In this document: in pieces, positions 1,129 through 11,296 of the stretch
Layout of the letters: the number at the start of each line of letters is the position of its first letter
Position numbering within the stretch: the stretch's first letter is position 1
DNA from: a virus
Virus record (IMG/VR): IMGVR_UViG_3300033150_000473
Span: 10,999-74,998 of that record
Reading direction: 5' to 3' (one strand)
Length of the DNA stretch: 64,000 nt
Position numbers and translations under genes: made by a program
Notes under the pieces: generated by a model
What the model saw: the letters and a program-made list of their open reading frames with translations, nothing else
Databases searched by the model: none
Told to the model about the DNA's origin: nothing

Positions 1129-1698
1129 ATGGCAAAGCGACGGCTGTCGGAGAATCCGCCCGATGTCCATAACAACAACAGCATCACGGCCCCCAGGCGG
1201 CTGAAGGCGACAGAGCGCAGGCAATTCGTAGTCGCACTCAGGACGGCAGGGGCTACGTTGCAGCAGTGTGCCAAGCAAGCGGTTGAGAAGTTTGGGGAAG
1301 AACAACTTCCCAAGAACTACAACAGGCAGGCCGTCTGGCTAGACATCAAGAGGGCTCAGAAGCACGCCTACAAGAGCATGGGGGAAGACCTCAAGACTTT
1401 CCGCATGATCCAGGTTGACCGTTACGAAGCTGTAATTAGGGCGCATTGGCTCAGGGCAATGGCTGGTGACAAAGGGTCTACGGATCGCGTCTTGAAAGCC
1501 ATGAAAGACGAAAACGCGCTACTGGGCTTGAATGCTCCAGCGAAAGTAGACATGAGGGTATTGCAAATTGACGCTCGCATCGAACAGCTCATGGAAACAG
1601 TGGCCTCTGGACGACAAGCTGAAGCTCCTAAAGCGCTTGGAAGCGGAGGCGACCAAGAGGAAGACTCCATCGTGGAGGGAACCGCACGACGTCTGTGA
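1129..1698 (+). CDS. putative terminase small subunit (HTH-like)
   Basis: Helical basic ORF directly upstream of and overlapping TerL; C-terminal LLGLNAPAKVD motif typical of TerS-like proteins; ATG at 1129 preferred. Confidence 0.65.
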   Translation: MAKRRLSENPPDVHNNNSITAPRRLKATERRQFVVALRTAGATLQQCAKQAVEKFGEEQLPKNYNRQAVWLDIKRAQKHAYKSMGEDLKTFRMIQVDRYEAVIRAHWLRAMAGDKGSTDRVLKAMKDENALLGLNAPAKVDMRVLQIDARIEQLMETVASGRQAEAPKALGSGGDQEEDSIVEGTARRL

Positions 1699-3880
1699 TT
1701 GGCTGGAAAAGCATTTTTACATCGAAGACCCAAGAGACATAGAGACGGGGGTTTTGCTACCGCCAGGGCCGATCCGGCTGTTCCCGCACCAGAAGCGTAT
1801 CCTGCGGGCGATGGTGGAGAAAGATGAACACGGTTTGTTTCGGTGGACGACACTGGTGTACTCTGCTGTTAAGAAATGTCTCGCGCCTGAGACGAGGGTG
1901 CTAACAACCAGCCTGGATTGGGTTCCTGTTGGCTCTCTCAAAGTAGGCGATAAATTGTTAGGTTTTGATGAAAACCCTGTGTGCCCCGCCTACCGCAAAG
2001 GAAGGGTTCGCGGCGGAACTGGACGAAGATATAGAGTAGCGACTGTATTGGATACTGGACTTGCGCCGATGTTGGCGCGGCGAATCTATCTCGCTGATGG
2101 CACAGTGATAACAGCCTCGCATGACCACAAGTGGCTGACCAGGCAAAAGGGGGGAAAGGGCCTAAGGTGGCGCAAGACGAGCGGTTTAAAGCCAGGGGGC
2201 TGGCTCTCTCGTTACCTGCCAGTTTGGGATATGCCACACGGGTACGATGACGGATATATAGCTGGTTGTTTGGACGGGGAGGGGCATATCCGGCCTGACT
2301 GCCGCGAGATTGGCATGGGGCAGAAAGAGAATGAATTGCTTGCCGAGTTCAAACGCATCTTGGTTGACCACGACATTAAGTTTAGCGAGTATCACCAAGA
2401 GACGTATGGTGGTGACTATGCAGGGCATTCAATTCAGAAGATTGCAATCTTAGGAGGAAGGCCCTGGAATCTTTACATGCTAGGCCATTTCAAGCCCAAG
2501 AGACTATTGGGCAAAATCCTGCCCCAATTAGACGGTGGGATTGGTCAAATCTGGCGGATGGGTGATGTAGAAATCGTTGCCATTGAGGAAACGGCGGCAG
2601 AGCTGGTCACGTTACAAACGAGCACGGAAACGTACTTTGCAGAAGGCTTTGCGGCGCACAATAGCGGAAAGACTCGCATCGCCGCTGGCATTGTCGCCTG
2701 GATGGCTGCACAGTATGGCCCTTACGCAGAATGTTATGTCATGGCAAATGACGGCAAGCAATCCGACGACCGATTGCTTTCAGCGATCCGCAAAACCGTT
2801 ACGTTTAACAAAGTACTAAATTGGCACATTAGCAAACGCAGGGTATCGTTGCCTGATGGTAGCTTTGTCGAGGCAATTCCTGTAGACCCTACCGGTGAAA
2901 GTGGGGCAAACCCGACGGCCACTGCCTGGAGTGAAATGTGGGGATACGGGCTTGCGCATAAAGAGCGCTTCTGGGCCACGATGACTGTTAGCCCTGCCAA
3001 GTTTGGGCGCAGTCTGCGCATCGTGGAAAGCTATGCTGGCTATTCAGGGGAGAGTCCAACACTAGAGCGCCTCTACGAACAAGGTGTTACACTAGGCAAG
3101 AAACACCCAGACTTTCCCGACCTGCCCGTTTATGTCAACGAGCCAGCGGGATTGATCTGCTACTGGGATACGATCCCCAGGATGCCGTGGCAGGATCGGC
3201 GATACTACGCCCAAGAGGCCCGGATGCTGCCGCACAACGAGTTCCTGCGGCTGCACAAGAACCAGTGGGTGCGCTCTGAGTTTGCTGCTATTCCGGTACA
3301 ATGGTGGACGGCTCTCAAAGAAGACCTGCCGCCGTTGAAACCGAAAGAACCGATCATCATCGGCGCGGATGCGGCGGTATCGGGAGCGTGTTTCGGGATA
3401 GTCGCTGTGACCCGACATCCCGATCCCGCGCGACGAGACACCGACGTAGCAGTCAGATACGCGAGGGCCTGGGCTCCACCGAAGGGTGGTAAAATAGACT
3501 ACGGCGCTAAAGATGGCCCGGAAGCGGAGATCCGAAGACTAGCCAAAGAGTACAAGGTTCTTGAAGTCTCTTACGACCAGTACCAGTTGCACCGCACCGC
3601 AACGCAATTCAACAAAGAGCGCGTCTGCTTCTGGAAGCCATTCGGACAGCAACAGGACAGGTTGATTTCAGACAACCAGATGTTCCAGATGATCAAGGGC
3701 GGCCACGTGGCCCATAGCGGGGATGCCGACCTCCAGGATCACGTGGTCAAAGCGAACGCCAAGACGAGCACCGACGAAGACACGAAGCTGAGGTTTGTGC
3801 AGAGAGACGACAGATCACCGATAGACTTACTGGTTGCTTTGAGCATGGCGGCCAAGCGATGTTTGGATTTGAGAATGTGA
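1568..3880 (+). CDS. terL: terminase large subunit containing an intein
   Basis: LFPHQ Q-motif; Walker A KK/SGKT split by the intein; nuclease domain IIIGADAA...SYDQYQ...SPIDLLVALSMA. Confidence 0.92.
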   Translation: MTLASNSSWKQWPLDDKLKLLKRLEAEATKRKTPSWREPHDVCDWLEKHFYIEDPRDIETGVLLPPGPIRLFPHQKRILRAMVEKDEHGLFRWTTLVYSAVKKCLAPETRVLTTSLDWVPVGSLKVGDKLLGFDENPVCPAYRKGRVRGGTGRRYRVATVLDTGLAPMLARRIYLADGTVITASHDHKWLTRQKGGKGLRWRKTSGLKPGGWLSRYLPVWDMPHGYDDGYIAGCLDGEGHIRPDCREIGMGQKENELLAEFKRILVDHDIKFSEYHQETYGGDYAGHSIQKIAILGGRPWNLYMLGHFKPKRLLGKILPQLDGGIGQIWRMGDVEIVAIEETAAELVTLQTSTETYFAEGFAAHNSGKTRIAAGIVAWMAAQYGPYAECYVMANDGKQSDDRLLSAIRKTVTFNKVLNWHISKRRVSLPDGSFVEAIPVDPTGESGANPTATAWSEMWGYGLAHKERFWATMTVSPAKFGRSLRIVESYAGYSGESPTLERLYEQGVTLGKKHPDFPDLPVYVNEPAGLICYWDTIPRMPWQDRRYYAQEARMLPHNEFLRLHKNQWVRSEFAAIPVQWWTALKEDLPPLKPKEPIIIGADAAVSGACFGIVAVTRHPDPARRDTDVAVRYARAWAPPKGGKIDYGAKDGPEAEIRRLAKEYKVLEVSYDQYQLHRTATQFNKERVCFWKPFGQQQDRLISDNQMFQMIKGGHVAHSGDADLQDHVVKANAKTSTDEDTKLRFVQRDDRSPIDLLVALSMAAKRCLDLRM
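1877..2662 (+). mobile_element. intein (262 aa) with LAGLIDADG-type endonuclease motif
   Basis: Starts CLAPETRVLT; block B ITASHDHKW; YIAGCLDGEG; ends YFAEGFAAHN followed by Ser+1. Confidence 0.95.
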
Positions 3881-5032: not shown

Positions 5033-5722
5033 ATGGGTGAAATACTAAAAGCCAGGCAACGCAGCAATACATTGTCGCGCGCTTTGGAGTGCGATGACAA
5101 CGCGGCGCTCTACGTAGTCGGCGGCGGCGCGGGCATGGCCGTGACGATTGCCGACGGCGCGGATGTTGCTTTAGGCGCGACTACGGATGCTGAATCCGCG
5201 GCAGGTAACGGCACGGTCGTCGCTATCTTGAAACGGCTACGGACGCTGCTCAACGGCGGACTGCCAGCCGCTTTGGGCCAAGGAACGATGGCACAGAGCC
5301 TCCCTGTTGTCGTTGCTAGTGACCAATCGTCTCTCACTGTTGACCAGGCAACACACGATCTCCTAAACTGCAACGCCAACATCCAGGTGGGCGATGCGGA
5401 TGTAGGCGTGGCAAATCCTGTGCCCATAGAAGCCGCGCCGATCACGACGCCGACGCATACCGCGGTCAACGTGACGGTAGCAAGCGGAGCGGTACTGGCT
5501 GCAAATGCTAACCGACTGTACGCGCTATTGGTCAACGACAGCGACACGGTGATCTACATCAAGCTGGGCGCGGCTGCGGTTGTCAACCAGGGCATCCGTA
5601 TCAATGCCGCCGGTGGCAACTACGAGATAAGCTCTGCGTTTGGCAATCTTTACACGGGAGCTATCTACGGCATCCATGGGGGAGCAGGGAACAAGGCGCT
5701 GCTAATGACAGAAGGAGTGTAG
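5033..5722 (+). CDS. putative virion structural/fibre protein
   Basis: Ala/Gly/Val-rich; GQGTMAQSLPVVVASDQ fibre-like motif; GGGAGG RBS. Confidence 0.55.
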   Translation: MGEILKARQRSNTLSRALECDDNAALYVVGGGAGMAVTIADGADVALGATTDAESAAGNGTVVAILKRLRTLLNGGLPAALGQGTMAQSLPVVVASDQSSLTVDQATHDLLNCNANIQVGDADVGVANPVPIEAAPITTPTHTAVNVTVASGAVLAANANRLYALLVNDSDTVIYIKLGAAAVVNQGIRINAAGGNYEISSAFGNLYTGAIYGIHGGAGNKALLMTEGV

Positions 5723-5724
5723 AC

Positions 5725-7275
5725 ATGCCATTGAGAAACCCGCTATGCATATTAGACGAAGACGACATGGCGTCCGATAGCGACATCTGTGTTCCCACGC
5801 AGCAGAGCGTCAAAGCCTACGTGGATGAGCGAAACTACTTCGGCATAGCCTGGAACGAGTCCACTGACGCTTACGAACGTCGCGGGGAACTCGCGGGCGT
5901 GGCAGCAGGAAGCTCGCCTGGGGACTCCGCGTTGCCTATCCAAGCGGCTATGCGACGGTGTGTCATCAGTGACGCGGGGGTAGTGCAGTACTATCTAGAC
6001 CCTACTGACTCCACCAAGAAACTGAGCGGCGAGGCTTCAGTTCTCACGGGCGCAGACGGCCAGGTGATGGTAGAGATACCGAAGTTCTACTATCGCTACA
6101 GCTACGCATCGAACGTCCACAAGTGGGACATCTCGTTCCTGCCACTGGCTGGATTTGACGTACACCCAGCCTTCATCAAGAACGGCGTGGAGGTTGACTA
6201 TCGTTACATCGGTGCATACGAGGGCGTGCTTTACGACAACTCTGAGTCTGTATACACTTCTGACTACAACCAGGTAGCGGCACACGCTGCCACGTTTGCT
6301 GTACCCGCCAACACCATCACAGCGGGGGCGGGGACACCGTATGCCCTGTTGCAAGCTGGCGATGTAATCGTAGTTACAGGAACGCCCAGCAACAACGGGA
6401 CTTATGTAATCTCAACGGTGGTGGGTGGGAACGTCATCACGACTGTGGGGGCATTGGTGGCAGGCGAAGCTGCGCCGAACACAGTTATCACTGCACCAGC
6501 AGTAGATACGGCTAACGACAAGTTGTCAAGCGTCAGCGGCAAGAAAGCAGTCACCGGCATCACGAGAGCCAACTTCCGGTTGATTGCAGCCAAGCGGGGC
6601 ACGGGCTGGCGGCAGTTCGATTTCTATCTAGCATCAGCAATCCAGTTGCTATATCTCGTAGAATACGCAGACTTCTACTCGCAGAGCATGATTGGCAATG
6701 GGCTGACAGATTGGGCCAGCGGAACGTGGAACACGCACAATGCCTATCATGCCATCAACAACGGCGGGCTAAGTAATGGTGACGGCAATGTGACTGCTAA
6801 TGTTTCCAACGGCGATGGTGTTGTGGGTTCATACATGAGTTACCGCGGTATCGAGAACTGGTATGGGCATGTCTGGAAGTTTGTAGACGGGTTCAATGTC
6901 AATAACTATGACGACAATGCGGGGACGGCATACAGTCGTGTGTGGGCTTCGAATACCGATACCGACTTTACGGATGATACCGCCGCGAACTACACGCAGG
7001 TTGGCGATGTTTGTGAAACTGATGGATACCAGAACACGCTAGTCCAAGTGGCGAGTGCTTTCTTGCCGTTGACGGTGGGCGCTGGTAGCACGACCAAGAT
7101 TACGGATTACTATTGGGCTTACTTTGATGATCTCTCTGCGCCGTTTGATGAATGGCGCGTGGCTCTTGCGGGCGCGGCCGCGTCCTACGGTGCGGGTGCC
7201 GGGGGCTGGGCGCTGCTTCTTCATCTTGCGTCGGGTAATGCCTCTGCGGATCTTGGCTCTCGGGCCTGCTTTTGA
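5725..7275 (+). CDS. DGR target protein with C-terminal C-type-lectin (FGE-like) fold and variable region
   Basis: GQVMVEIPKFYY and SYRGIENWYGHVWKFVDG motifs; the last 40 codons align to the downstream TR. Confidence 0.9.
   Translation: MPLRNPLCILDEDDMASDSDICVPTQQSVKAYVDERNYFGIAWNESTDAYERRGELAGVAAGSSPGDSALPIQAAMRRCVISDAGVVQYYLDPTDSTKKLSGEASVLTGADGQVMVEIPKFYYRYSYASNVHKWDISFLPLAGFDVHPAFIKNGVEVDYRYIGAYEGVLYDNSESVYTSDYNQVAAHAATFAVPANTITAGAGTPYALLQAGDVIVVTGTPSNNGTYVISTVVGGNVITTVGALVAGEAAPNTVITAPAVDTANDKLSSVSGKKAVTGITRANFRLIAAKRGTGWRQFDFYLASAIQLLYLVEYADFYSQSMIGNGLTDWASGTWNTHNAYHAINNGGLSNGDGNVTANVSNGDGVVGSYMSYRGIENWYGHVWKFVDGFNVNNYDDNAGTAYSRVWASNTDTDFTDDTAANYTQVGDVCETDGYQNTLVQVASAFLPLTVGAGSTTKITDYYWAYFDDLSAPFDEWRVALAGAAASYGAGAGGWALLLHLASGNASADLGSRACF
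7153..7272 (+). repeat. DGR variable repeat (VR)
   Basis: Gap-free 120-nt alignment to 7317-7436; 33 mismatches, 32 of them at TR adenines. Confidence 0.97.
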
Positions 7276-7316
7276 GTTTTTCAAGTTTTAGGGTTTTCCA
7301 TATCAATCAGGCCAGT

Positions 7317-7436
7317 TAGCGCGTAGCTCATGCAGGCACGAACACGAACAACAGTGCGAATGCCAGGGGCTAGGCACTGAATCTTAATAATGCGTCAGGT
7401 AATACCAATGCGAATATTGGCACTCAGGCTAGCTTA
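7317..7436 (+). repeat. DGR template repeat (TR)
   Basis: AAC/AAT-rich copy of the VR; 37 adenines, 32 differ in the VR; non-coding. Confidence 0.97.
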
Positions 7437-7557
7437 TTTCGAATGACAAACAAATACGAGATATGGAAAACCTTGCCTCTCGGCAAAACACAAGGCAATG
7501 CCCCATTGGTGTTGGTAGGGCCGAAGGGTCTCGAAGGCTCCGGGGTGAAATAAGCAG

Positions 7558-8646
7558 ATGAAACGCTACGGCGATCTGTACGCCAAGATTTGGGACATGG
7601 AGAATATCCGCGAGGCACACCACAATGCACAGCGCGGCAAGAGGCATTACCGCGAAGTACAAATGGTAAACGCCAATGAGGAGAAATATCTATCACAAAT
7701 CCAGGCAATGTTGCGTGACAAGACATTCCACACTTCCGAATATGAGGTCTTCACCAAATCAGACAGTGGCAAAGAACGCGAGATTTCTAAACTGCCGTAC
7801 TTCCCAGACAGAATCGTGCACCACTGCGCCATGCAGGTACTTGAGCCAATCTGGATGAAGACACTCATTACCGATACTTATGCTGCACTGAAAGGACGGG
7901 GCATTCATAGGGGTGTCAAAAGGGTAAAGCTGGCATTGCGCGACAGAGAAAACACGCAGTATTGTCTCAAGTTTGATATACGCAAGTTCTATCCGTCCGT
8001 TGACCATGACGTCTTGAAGTCCATAATCCGCCGGAAGATCAAAGACCCAGGTGTATTGTGGCTCTTGGATGAAATCATAGACTCCGCTGATGGTATTCCA
8101 ATTGGGAATTATCTCAGCCAGTATTTTGGCAACTTGTACTTGGCGTATTTTGACCATTGGATGAAAGAAGAGAAGCGTTGCAGATACTACTTCCGCTATT
8201 GTGACGACATCGTAGTGTTGCATAGTAGCAAGAAGTTCCTGCATGGGCTGTTCAGAGAAGCACAAGAATATCTATCTACCAATCTGAAACTGTGCATCAA
8301 ATCCAACCATCAGATATTCCCAGTAGACAAGCGCGGTATTGATTTTCTTGGCTATCGGTTCTTCCATGACTACGTACTCCTGCGAAAGAATATTGCACAG
8401 AGATTTAAAGAAAAGGTGCGCCACATTCGACGCGAGTGGTGGAACATGCGGCCAAGCCAAGTCGTAAACAGCATCATGAGTTATTGGGGCTGGATGAGGC
8501 ACGGGAACTGTCTTAATCTTGCCAAGAGACATATTGACGGGGAAATCCAACGGATCATAGCAGAAACGTGTAAGGCAAGCGGAACGAGAAATCCATTAAG
8601 GAGACTTAAATGGCTCAAGGCGACACCTATCCAGAAACCACAGTAA
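7558..8646 (+). CDS. DGR reverse transcriptase
   Basis: DRIVHH, LKFDIRKFYPS, GIPIGNYLSQ (SQ signature of DGR RTs), YCDD, GIDFLGY; 362 aa; no maturase or endonuclease domain. Confidence 0.96.
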   Translation: MKRYGDLYAKIWDMENIREAHHNAQRGKRHYREVQMVNANEEKYLSQIQAMLRDKTFHTSEYEVFTKSDSGKEREISKLPYFPDRIVHHCAMQVLEPIWMKTLITDTYAALKGRGIHRGVKRVKLALRDRENTQYCLKFDIRKFYPSVDHDVLKSIIRRKIKDPGVLWLLDEIIDSADGIPIGNYLSQYFGNLYLAYFDHWMKEEKRCRYYFRYCDDIVVLHSSKKFLHGLFREAQEYLSTNLKLCIKSNHQIFPVDKRGIDFLGYRFFHDYVLLRKNIAQRFKEKVRHIRREWWNMRPSQVVNSIMSYWGWMRHGNCLNLAKRHIDGEIQRIIAETCKASGTRNPLRRLKWLKATPIQKPQ

Positions 8647-9005
8647 AATCGCGCGGCAAGACGCTATATAGGTACAACATCCGTGAAGTTGAAGTTACCA
8701 ACGAACCCAATGGCAAGCCCCGAACGGCCTACGAGTATGATGAAGTTGCCATCGCGGGCAAAGTCACCAAAGCCAAGATCGTCGCTGCCATGCGTACCGC
8801 CGAGGCCGAGCAGGACACCAGTGACATTGGCGAGGCTGCGGCGCAGTATCGGGGCGCCAAGGGCGCGATCAAGCTGTCGAACCTGTCCGAGTTTACCTAT
8901 GACGAACTCGATACCTATATCCAGATTCATGTGACTGACATGGCGTCAGCCAGGGGCTTTCTGAAGAAACTCGCGAAGGTTGTGTTAGCGATACTAAAGA
9001 GCTAA
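8610..9005 (+). CDS. hypothetical protein overlapping the RT 3' end (possible DGR accessory or fibre chaperone)
   Basis: 131-aa ORF with AAGGAG RBS inside the RT gene. Confidence 0.65.
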   Translation: MAQGDTYPETTVKSRGKTLYRYNIREVEVTNEPNGKPRTAYEYDEVAIAGKVTKAKIVAAMRTAEAEQDTSDIGEAAAQYRGAKGAIKLSNLSEFTYDELDTYIQIHVTDMASARGFLKKLAKVVLAILKS

Positions 9006-10560: not shown

Positions 10561-11296
10561 AATCGAACTTCCCTATGGTTTGGGAGCGCGCTACAAAGAC
10601 GACGACCGCGACTGGCGCTACAGGCGCGGAGCTTTGGTACGCAGCGGCACGCACAGGCCACCAGTGGTAGACAACCGTCACCTGTTCATCAGGATACCCG
10701 TGTGGAATCAAGGGAAAGAGGGTGCTTGCACTGGAATGGCGATGGCTGGAGCACTGAGCGAGATTTACGGCCAAGAACTCAGTCCCCGTTTCATGTTCGA
10801 GGCGGCCAAAGAGCACGACGAGTGGCCTGGTGAGGACTACGACGGGTCTTCGGTGCGAGGTGCAGCCAAAGCCGCGGCCTCTGTAGGCTGTTGTCTGCAC
10901 AACTTGTGGCCGTTCGCGCCCTTCCAGACAGGGGGGAAAGACCCGAATGCTAACACTGATGCCAAGCTGCATGTGCTTACCAGCTACGAGCGACTAGGTT
11001 CGCTCAGGGAGATACTACATGCCATCTGGGACATGGGATACGTGGTAGCGACGGTTGACGTGCACACAGGGTGGATCAGGCCAACGAGGAAGCACAGGAT
11101 ACGCTATCATCCCAGGTACATCAGCCGTGGACTTCACGCAGTCTTGTTCTGTGGCTACGACGAGAAGACCGGCTACTTGTTGCTTCGCAATTCTTGGCGG
11201 GACGACTGGGGCGATGCGGGGTATGCCTGGTTGAAGTTCGATGACTGGATGGCAAACGGCCAGGATGCGTGGATGGTTGTCAATGAGGCATACTAA
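10550..11296 (+). CDS. papain-family (C1A) cysteine peptidase
   Basis: WNQGKEGACTG (Gln/Cys), GLHAVLFCGY (His), LRNSWRDDWGDAGY (Asn). Confidence 0.9.
   Translation: MPSKIELPYGLGARYKDDDRDWRYRRGALVRSGTHRPPVVDNRHLFIRIPVWNQGKEGACTGMAMAGALSEIYGQELSPRFMFEAAKEHDEWPGEDYDGSSVRGAAKAAASVGCCLHNLWPFAPFQTGGKDPNANTDAKLHVLTSYERLGSLREILHAIWDMGYVVATVDVHTGWIRPTRKHRIRYHPRYISRGLHAVLFCGYDEKTGYLLLRNSWRDDWGDAGYAWLKFDDWMANGQDAWMVVNEAY

Follow-up and report, generated by a model that had tools for sequence, protein, structure and literature searches.

The window analyzed here, 64,000 nucleotides of viral DNA corresponding to positions 10,999 to 74,998 of IMG/VR record IMGVR_UViG_3300033150_000473, carries an intact phage DGR that has no Avd and consists of a tail-protein target gene with its VR, a TR, a structured spacer RNA, and an RT. 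The reading that we favor, with slightly better than even confidence, is that this accessory-free DGR rewrites the 40 C-terminal codons of its target and that the RT lineage to which it belongs reads template adenines in two ways, according to the base that has just been copied. The pattern spans the RT lineage (45-88% identity) and more than 100 natural TR/VR pairs, and comparison of these pairs indicates that the governing variable is the base, or bases, lying 3′ of the adenine, just copied by the RT, and not whether the adenine is isolated or part of an AAY codon.

An intact DGR without an accessory gene

The components of the element, all on the plus strand, are as follows.

5725..7275, + strand: DGR target gene; its product is a phage tail protein of 516 aa, and the VR occupies the final 40 codons
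7153..7272, + strand: VR, 69% G+C, aligned to the TR without gaps at an offset of 164
7291..7306, + strand: conserved motif GGGTTTTCCATATCAA, lying after the VR stop codon and ahead of the TR
7317..7436, + strand: TR, with 37 adenines (9 before G, 5 before a C not followed by A, 3 in ACA, and 20 before A or T)
7317..7319, + strand: in-frame TAG at the 5′ edge of the TR, where the VR codon is TGG (Trp)
7371..7373, + strand: second in-frame TAG, in the TR interior with diversified AAY codons on either side, where the VR codon is TGG (Trp)
7432..7438, + strand: 3′ end of the TR, GCTTATT, which pairs with AATAAGC (7549-7555) and closes the spacer RNA just before the RT start
7437..7557, + strand: structured, conserved spacer of the DGR RNA (Rfam RT-17 match, RNAalifold)
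7558..8646, + strand: DGR RT, 362 aa, with motifs IGNYLSQ and YCDD (PF00078, E=6e-14; phrog_1423, E=5e-125)

A gap of 41 nt separates the target gene and its VR from the TR, and a further 121 nt separate the TR from the RT. Two features of DGRs are present: the RT carries the clade motif 4 [I/V]GxxxSQ together with YxDD, and the differences between TR and VR are essentially confined to TR adenines, which account for 32 of the 33 mismatches over 120 nt, the other being a T>C change in codon 38. An adenine-tolerant scan of both strands of the whole 74,998-bp virus record found no second VR, and Avd (PF05635) is absent from the same record, there being no room for it next to the TR. Nor was a near-identical relative of the element found when we sought different VRs under one TR.

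The target protein matches phrog_5302 ("tail protein") with E=1.2e-92, and a Pfam search of it found no domain. A profile of its C-terminal domain matches 5vf4, the Thermus aquaticus DGR variable protein TaqVP, which has a C-type-lectin fold, although the match is weak and covers a short stretch (E=1.4e-5); an AlphaFold2 model of the domain, built on a 21-sequence alignment, was poor, with a mean pLDDT of 50. The best solved relative of the RT is the BPP-1 bRT structure 8ub7 (E=1.2e-39). On manual inspection of the 8ub7 alignment, the window RT appeared to conserve the residues equivalent to bRT R74 and I181, which we take to shape adenine mutagenesis.

The spacer RNA is likewise intact. Rfam RT-17 (RF03020) matches positions 7469-7561 with 47.5 bits, above its gathering score of 40.4, and RNAalifold applied to the spacers of 18 relatives gave 25 pairs, 8 of them with compensatory changes; the GCUUAUU/AAUAAGC helix comprises seven pairs that are invariant across the 18 relatives. 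Upstream of the TR, the motif GGGTTTTCCATATCAA stands at the same place in loci L081, L001, L003, L086, L005, and L006, while the rest of the intergenic sequence has diverged. Its possible roles include those of a promoter, of the 5′ terminus of the DGR RNA, and of a target-site element that takes the place of the BPP-1 hairpin. BPP-1-type DGRs have an IMH with a GC-only tract, and a hairpin just 3′ of the VR. In the window, the VR end, which lies upstream of the motif, is rich in G and C (GGCTCTCGGGCC), and fixed positions set it apart from the TR end.

Two neighboring genes deserve mention in their own right. Positions 1568-3880 encode a 770-aa terminase large subunit with a TerL nuclease domain and a putative intein. 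The putative insert opens at about residue 104 with CLAPETRVLT, its Cys following two lysines, and ends in HN, after which SGKT follows, so that removing it would restore a Walker-A-like KKSGKT; a Pfam search of the protein gave no intein match. Downstream of the DGR, a 131-aa ORF (8610-9005) overlaps the RT stop by 37 nt and matches phrog_11557, of unknown function (E=1.3e-5); Pfam found no domain in it, and it might conceivably stand in for an accessory protein.

Two classes of template adenine in the window

A first-pass annotation of this DNA, made from the sequence alone, had drawn attention to in-frame stop codons in the TR and to two classes of template adenine with unlike outcomes, and our codon-by-codon comparison of TR and VR bears out these observations and each of the counts given. 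At codons 1 and 19 the TR reads TAG and the VR reads TGG. The TR has 17 adenines that do not belong to AAY codons, and none of them is retained in the VR; 12 are replaced by G, 4 by T, and 1 by C, and the 12 changes to G include all four adenines at fourfold-synonymous third positions (GTA>GTG, GCA>GCG twice, and TCA>TCG). Within the 10 AAY codons, 15 of 20 adenines are changed, only 4 of them to G. The pattern is unlikely to be a chance effect: at the AAY-type change rate of the lineage, the probability of 17 changes in 17 sites is 2e-4, the probability of 12 or more G in 17 is 6e-5, and Fisher's test of isolated against AAY adenines in the window gives p=0.003.

Sorting the same sites by the base that follows the adenine gives a sharper picture. 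Adenines before G became G in eight cases and T in one (n=9), and those before a C not followed by A became G in four and T in one (n=5), while the 20 adenines before A or T yielded 4 A, 4 G, 5 C, and 7 T. All 12 of the A>G changes outside AAY codons fall at A before G (8) or at A before a C not followed by A (4), and none of the three isolated adenines that precede T became G. The first-pass annotation had suggested that isolated adenines are read almost deterministically as G while AAY codons are randomized. The existence of two classes stands, but the distinction between isolated and AAY adenines does not, since the 3′ base governs the outcome.

Some of these differences probably have another origin. 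The last three to five differing codons (36 to 40) lie at or in the 3′ boundary of the repeat, and the same differences are fixed in all relatives, where the TR reads CAGTCAGGTCAGC and the VR reads CgGTCgGGTCtGC, an A>T change at this point creating a Cys. These fixed differences adjoin the TR segment that is paired with the spacer RNA, and in a sister subclade of elements (see below) a comparable A>T difference is fixed at the 3′ edge. Judged from this conservation, the differences in codons 36 to 40 are probably fixed differences of the IMH/IMH* type rather than outcomes of mutagenesis. In a Bacteroides DGR, boundary zones free of adenine mutation have been described (10.1101/2024.11.15.621889). 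Of the 17 sites counted above, two to five therefore leave the argument, and what stays is the interior of the repeat, where all seven isolated adenines between the first and last changed AAY codons became G.

The context rule across the RT lineage

Related loci were gathered from viral contigs (80) and from metagenome contigs (80), with RTs 49-88% identical, and their TR/VR pairs were located with an adenine-tolerant diagonal scan. Context counts were restricted to the converted tract, taken as the stretch from the first to the last changed AAY codon. All of the data are surviving natural VRs, and related elements are not fully independent samples. Counted over 27 and then 54 distinct C-terminal-VR pairs, adenines outside AAY codons gave A 74, G 231, C 25, and T 44, as against A 220, G 100, C 90, and T 102 for AAY adenines. 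When the interior sites of 45 C-terminal-VR pairs were sorted by context, adenines before G were 92% G and 7% A, with about 0 C or T (n=98), and those in ACC, ACG, and ACT were 70-94% G. Adenines in ACA, AA, and AT kept A in 31-50% of cases, with G, C, and T all present; for AA and AT taken by themselves the range is 31-48%. Consistent with a rule set by the following base, isolated adenines before T act like AAY adenines, and in-frame AAC codons are only an apparent exception because most of them precede A and so present the context ACA.

Nine pairs from the nearest relatives (RT 70-88% identity) follow the same rule closely, with G at 29 of 29 adenines before G and at 18 of 19 before a C not followed by A, while adenines before A or T kept A in 40% of cases. 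In 36 further pairs that had been held out, taken from prokaryotic (cellular) genome contigs, adenines before G became G at 25 of 26 sites, including all 12 that were synonymous; A before C gave only 48% G, so this part of the rule was not replicated. A sister subclade, represented by L027-L080 and L144-L159 and having RTs about 50-54% identical, is organized differently: a single TR supplies a pair of small paralogous targets (about 140-170 aa), whose mid-gene VRs each finish about 78 nt short of the stop codon, and most RTs of the subclade have YADD. In the two VRs, every adenine that precedes G is written as G (16 of 16), and the A-before-C rule is absent, these adenines staying variable. 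Because the A-before-C part fails both in the held-out set and in the sister subclade, we treat A before G alone as well supported. Conversion of A before C to G may be an RT trait specific to the subclade of the window, or it may be due to selection.

The first-pass annotation had also tied the behavior to the YCDD motif of the RT and had proposed a comparison of related TR/VR pairs. The comparison shows a context rule that holds lineage-wide, but one bound neither to YCDD, because YADD and YMDD members give the same A-before-G outcome, nor to the isolated-versus-AAY division. One group of loci, L013 to L016, has a single TR and four VRs that differ from one another at A sites; at adenines before G or C these VRs have only A or G, mostly G. 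As far as natural VRs can tell, this shows recent DGR activity in the lineage. In L013 and L015, VR codon 18 is GAT under a TR codon TAT, a T>G change at a non-adenine beside an adenine, which might by analogy reflect sporadic misreading of a template uracil, an error described for bRT in the DGRec preprint.

Stop codons in the template

The first TAG of the window TR has counterparts in L001, L002, L003, L006, L085, L107, L020, L021, and L132, all with TAG>TGG at the homologous Trp. The second is shared with L082, the nearest relative with a similar TR. Among about 47 genuine pairs, about 13, or about a quarter, have a TAG in the TR opposite TGG, and TR TAG codons are always opposite TGG; the window element is the only one of these with two template TAGs, and it also has the highest share of changed adenines (86%, against a median of 67%). 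Elsewhere in the lineage, TR codon 11 of L155 is TGA opposite TGG, L264 (a Lentimicrobiaceae MAG contig) has TAG opposite TGG, and L270 has TAA opposite TTA. No sign of TAG reassignment was seen in the window phage: the gene ending at 5722 uses TAG as its stop, as do 29 of 81 long open frames.

The TAG codons mean that a faithful copy of the TR is nonfunctional, in agreement with the earlier proposal that an unmutated copy would truncate the target. A close relative with G in place of a template adenine, which had been put forward as evidence against that proposal, does exist: L082 has TGG at TR codon 1, where the window has TAG. We read this as neutral A/G interchange, A and G at these TR sites being nearly neutral among relatives because both are written alike; polymorphism among related TRs, at 190 A/G and 172 C/T differences, speaks clearly neither for nor against neutrality. 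We found no description in the literature of in-frame stops in a DGR TR. A published design rule holds that DGR templates cannot write nonsense codons (PMC4372165, PMC10907252, 10.1101/2025.03.24.644984), and the AAY codons of the window obey it, whereas the template itself carries two in-frame TAGs.

Selection, repair, editing, and drift as alternative explanations

Most A-before-G sites are nonsynonymous scaffold positions (Trp, Gly, Arg, and Ala), at which selection alone would give G. Synonymous sites are therefore the more telling ones. At fourfold sites before G, 41 of 45 adenines became G and none became C or T, in contrast to 0 of 8 before A or T; at all A/G-synonymous third positions before G, the figure is 46 of 50, from 31 elements. 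Because the pattern persists at such sites, protein selection cannot explain it, as had been argued earlier for the window, although the argument assumes that misincorporation is independent between the sites of one cDNA. Selection on codon usage for G-ending codons was rejected, fourfold sites in the same genes being 29% A and 20% G. Template slippage, in which the base just copied is used again, fits AG>GG and also predicts AC>CC, but C makes up only 0-6% here.

The main rival, which we judge unlikely, is an explanation that retains selection. It supposes an ordinary bRT-like error spectrum, with A>G arising only before G at 20-40%, from which the rare survivors are those with G at about ten scaffold sites; G at synonymous sites would then appear because survivors derive from cDNAs made in a high-error state, whether through dNTP imbalance or through a "mode" of the RT. 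The behavior of bRT itself, which gives A>G only before G and at a lowered rate, fits this explanation, as does the conservation across relatives of the W, G, R, and A residues that the mostly nonsynonymous sites specify in the VR. The A>T change that gives Cys in every relative also fits, being a conserved difference that clearly reflects no general reading of A as G. However, 10-12 required sites converted at 20-40% would leave only 1e-5 to 1e-8 functional products per homing event, and productive homing must be frequent, since changes at non-A positions of the TR are mirrored in the VRs lineage-wide. Furthermore, in the same VRs, AAY adenines keep A in 34-49% of cases, five times more than the 8% at synonymous adenines before G. 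Any high-error state would thus have to be context specific, which is nearly the same claim as the two-way reading of adenines that we favor.

A second explanation, which we regard as improbable, places the effect in the target DNA rather than in the RT: a G:T mismatch between an old VR G and a faithful T in the cDNA would be corrected to G, so that the VR would retain a memory of its former state and G would become absorbing wherever the RT gives A or G. The necessary intermediates are plausible, as heteroduplexes and an effect of MutS on DGR homing have been reported (10.1101/2024.11.15.621889) and the effects of ExoI and of replication orientation point to annealing between cDNA and target (PMC12875486). 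In the Bacteroides DGR, on the other hand, the substitution pattern does not depend on mutS, and the repair of heteroduplexes by MutS is all-or-nothing, which argues against site-by-site retention of old VR bases (10.1101/2024.11.15.621889). Moreover, G is not enriched at AAY positions (16-28%), even though it would be sticky there too.

Still less probable, in our view, is A-to-I editing of the TR RNA, in which a host or phage adenosine deaminase would make inosine from adenines before G and the RT would read it as G. Both the direction of the change, A read as G, and the preference for a 3′ G resemble ADAR-type editing. Against this, the pattern tracks the RT lineage across very different hosts (Bacteroidota, Deltaproteobacteria, Firmicutes, and archaeal MAG contigs), which makes editing unparsimonious. 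In addition, bRT by itself displays a bias of the same kind in E. coli (10.1101/2025.03.24.644984).

Finally, G>A drift of the TR after death of the element, which the first-pass annotation had offered as an alternative and which could draw on the A/G differences among relatives at these TR sites (L082 against the window, as above), is hardly credible: the RT ORF, the RT motifs, and the spacer RNA are all intact; the TR has A at 16 of 47 VR G sites and T at only 1 of 36 VR C sites in the window (p=3e-4); TR/VR differences clade-wide number 625 A/G against 3 T/C, 3 C/T, and 2 G/A, so that ordinary transition drift is absent and decay after inactivation can be rejected; the pattern recurs in more than 100 elements; and VRs differ under the identical TR of L013-L016.

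A model for two-way reading of template adenines

If adenines are indeed read in two ways, the events at the window TR might be as follows. After copying a G, the RT would insert dC opposite a following A in roughly nine of ten productive events, giving G in the VR, and in the subclade to which the window belongs it would also do so after a C, unless an A follows that C. After copying an A or T, its choice among the four nucleotides would be free, as in the classical randomization of AAY codons. Of the adenines of the window TR, 14 would then be "hidden guanines" specifying invariant scaffold residues, two of these adenines lying in the TAG codons that are written as TGG, and the other 23 would serve diversification; the occasional copy in which a TAG retains its A would give a truncated tail protein and be lost. 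We infer from comparisons of natural pairs both that the RT itself is the cause and what the rate per event would be, and near-determinism is accordingly to be read as a property of surviving VRs and not as a measured rate.

A broader proposal, which we put forward tentatively and with less than even confidence, is that this Avd-less RT lineage evolved near-deterministic recoding, in which an A read after G is written as G, so that fixed residues can be spelled with adenines, Trp even as TAG, faithful copies are nonviable, and the TR is free to diverge from the VR. The TR and VR of the window are 72% identical and their longest common run is 6 nt; with the hidden-guanine adenines as G, that run would be 19 nt. 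The predicted minimum free energy of the TR RNA is -32.7 kcal/mol in the window, compared with -42.6 kcal/mol with those adenines as G, and the corresponding predicted means for 46 relatives are -25.6 and -33.4 kcal/mol. Speculatively, lower TR/VR identity could shield the close repeats from recombination, or lower structure could ease reverse transcription.

DGR templates are usually read on the understanding that each adenine is variable and that anything able to become a stop is avoided. If A before G is written as G throughout the lineage, diversity estimates and TR-based calls of variable positions would be inflated for such elements; in the window, 14 of the 37 TR adenines would not vary. 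In-frame stops in a TR would likewise not need to signal a dead or "off-switch" template. A natural RT with so sharply context-dependent an error profile would also be relevant to tools for directed evolution, for which bRT alone has been used so far.

Comparison with BPP-1 and other known systems

In its order of target, TR, and RT and in its lack of an accessory gene, the window element resembles Architecture A/Lineage 3 of Wu et al. 2018, which includes crAss-like phage DGRs (PMC5758913). It has no avd, HRDC, or MSL gene, and its target is a phage tail protein. The context rule and template stops are not described in that survey (PMC5758913). In a crAss-like phage that we came across, cr53_1 (L162; NC_055889.1), the annotated DGR RT gene at 2102-3124 contains 8 stops under code 11 and no ORF of >=200 aa, which probably fits stop-codon reassignment in that phage. 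That A>G is the commonest substitution in DGRs has been known since 2012, when a survey found 13-79% of adenines unchanged (PMC3521204); with 5 of its 37 TR adenines unchanged, the window sits at the extreme of that range.

The best point of comparison is the BPP-1 DGR (mtd-avd-TR-brt), which belongs to Architecture B (avd-TR-RT). The two elements have in common adenine-specific TR/VR differences, a C-terminal VR in a tail protein (receptor-binding in BPP-1), homologous RTs, and a structured spacer RNA between TR and RT. They differ in that BPP-1 has Avd and the window element does not, in their RT motifs (IGNYLSQ and YCDD in the window, IGSLTSQ and YMDD in BPP-1), and in the main variable codon, which is AAT in the window and AAC in BPP-1. 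For BPP-1 bRT, the bases just read largely determine the type of error, the mean error being about 30% (10.1101/2025.03.24.644984; PMC12875486), and in E. coli a template G just read "strongly biases" the enzyme to A>G but lowers its error rate (10.1101/2025.03.24.644984). The window lineage thus shares with bRT both an error type set by the base just copied and A>G as the sole error before G; because bRT lowers its error in this context, a rate of roughly 90% would represent a large quantitative departure. The two also part at A before C, where bRT favors A>C (10.1101/2025.03.24.644984; PMC12875486) and the window element gives A>G. The qualitative context rule has, then, already been published for bRT, and it is near-complete conversion and a stop-bearing template that appear to be undescribed.

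The difference is also seen in natural sequences. In 58 natural pairs from the BPP-1 RT clade, taken through the same pipeline as a control, A before G accounts for 19 of 1133 adenines (1.7%, against 8.9% in the window lineage), and these adenines are 58% A and 42% G in the VR, with no C or T. A before G is therefore kept as A in 58% of cases in the BPP-1 clade and in 7% in the window lineage. None of the 58 BPP-1-clade TRs has a stop codon, and the A-before-G outcome distinguishes the window lineage from the BPP-1 clade with p=1.8e-6 by Fisher's test.
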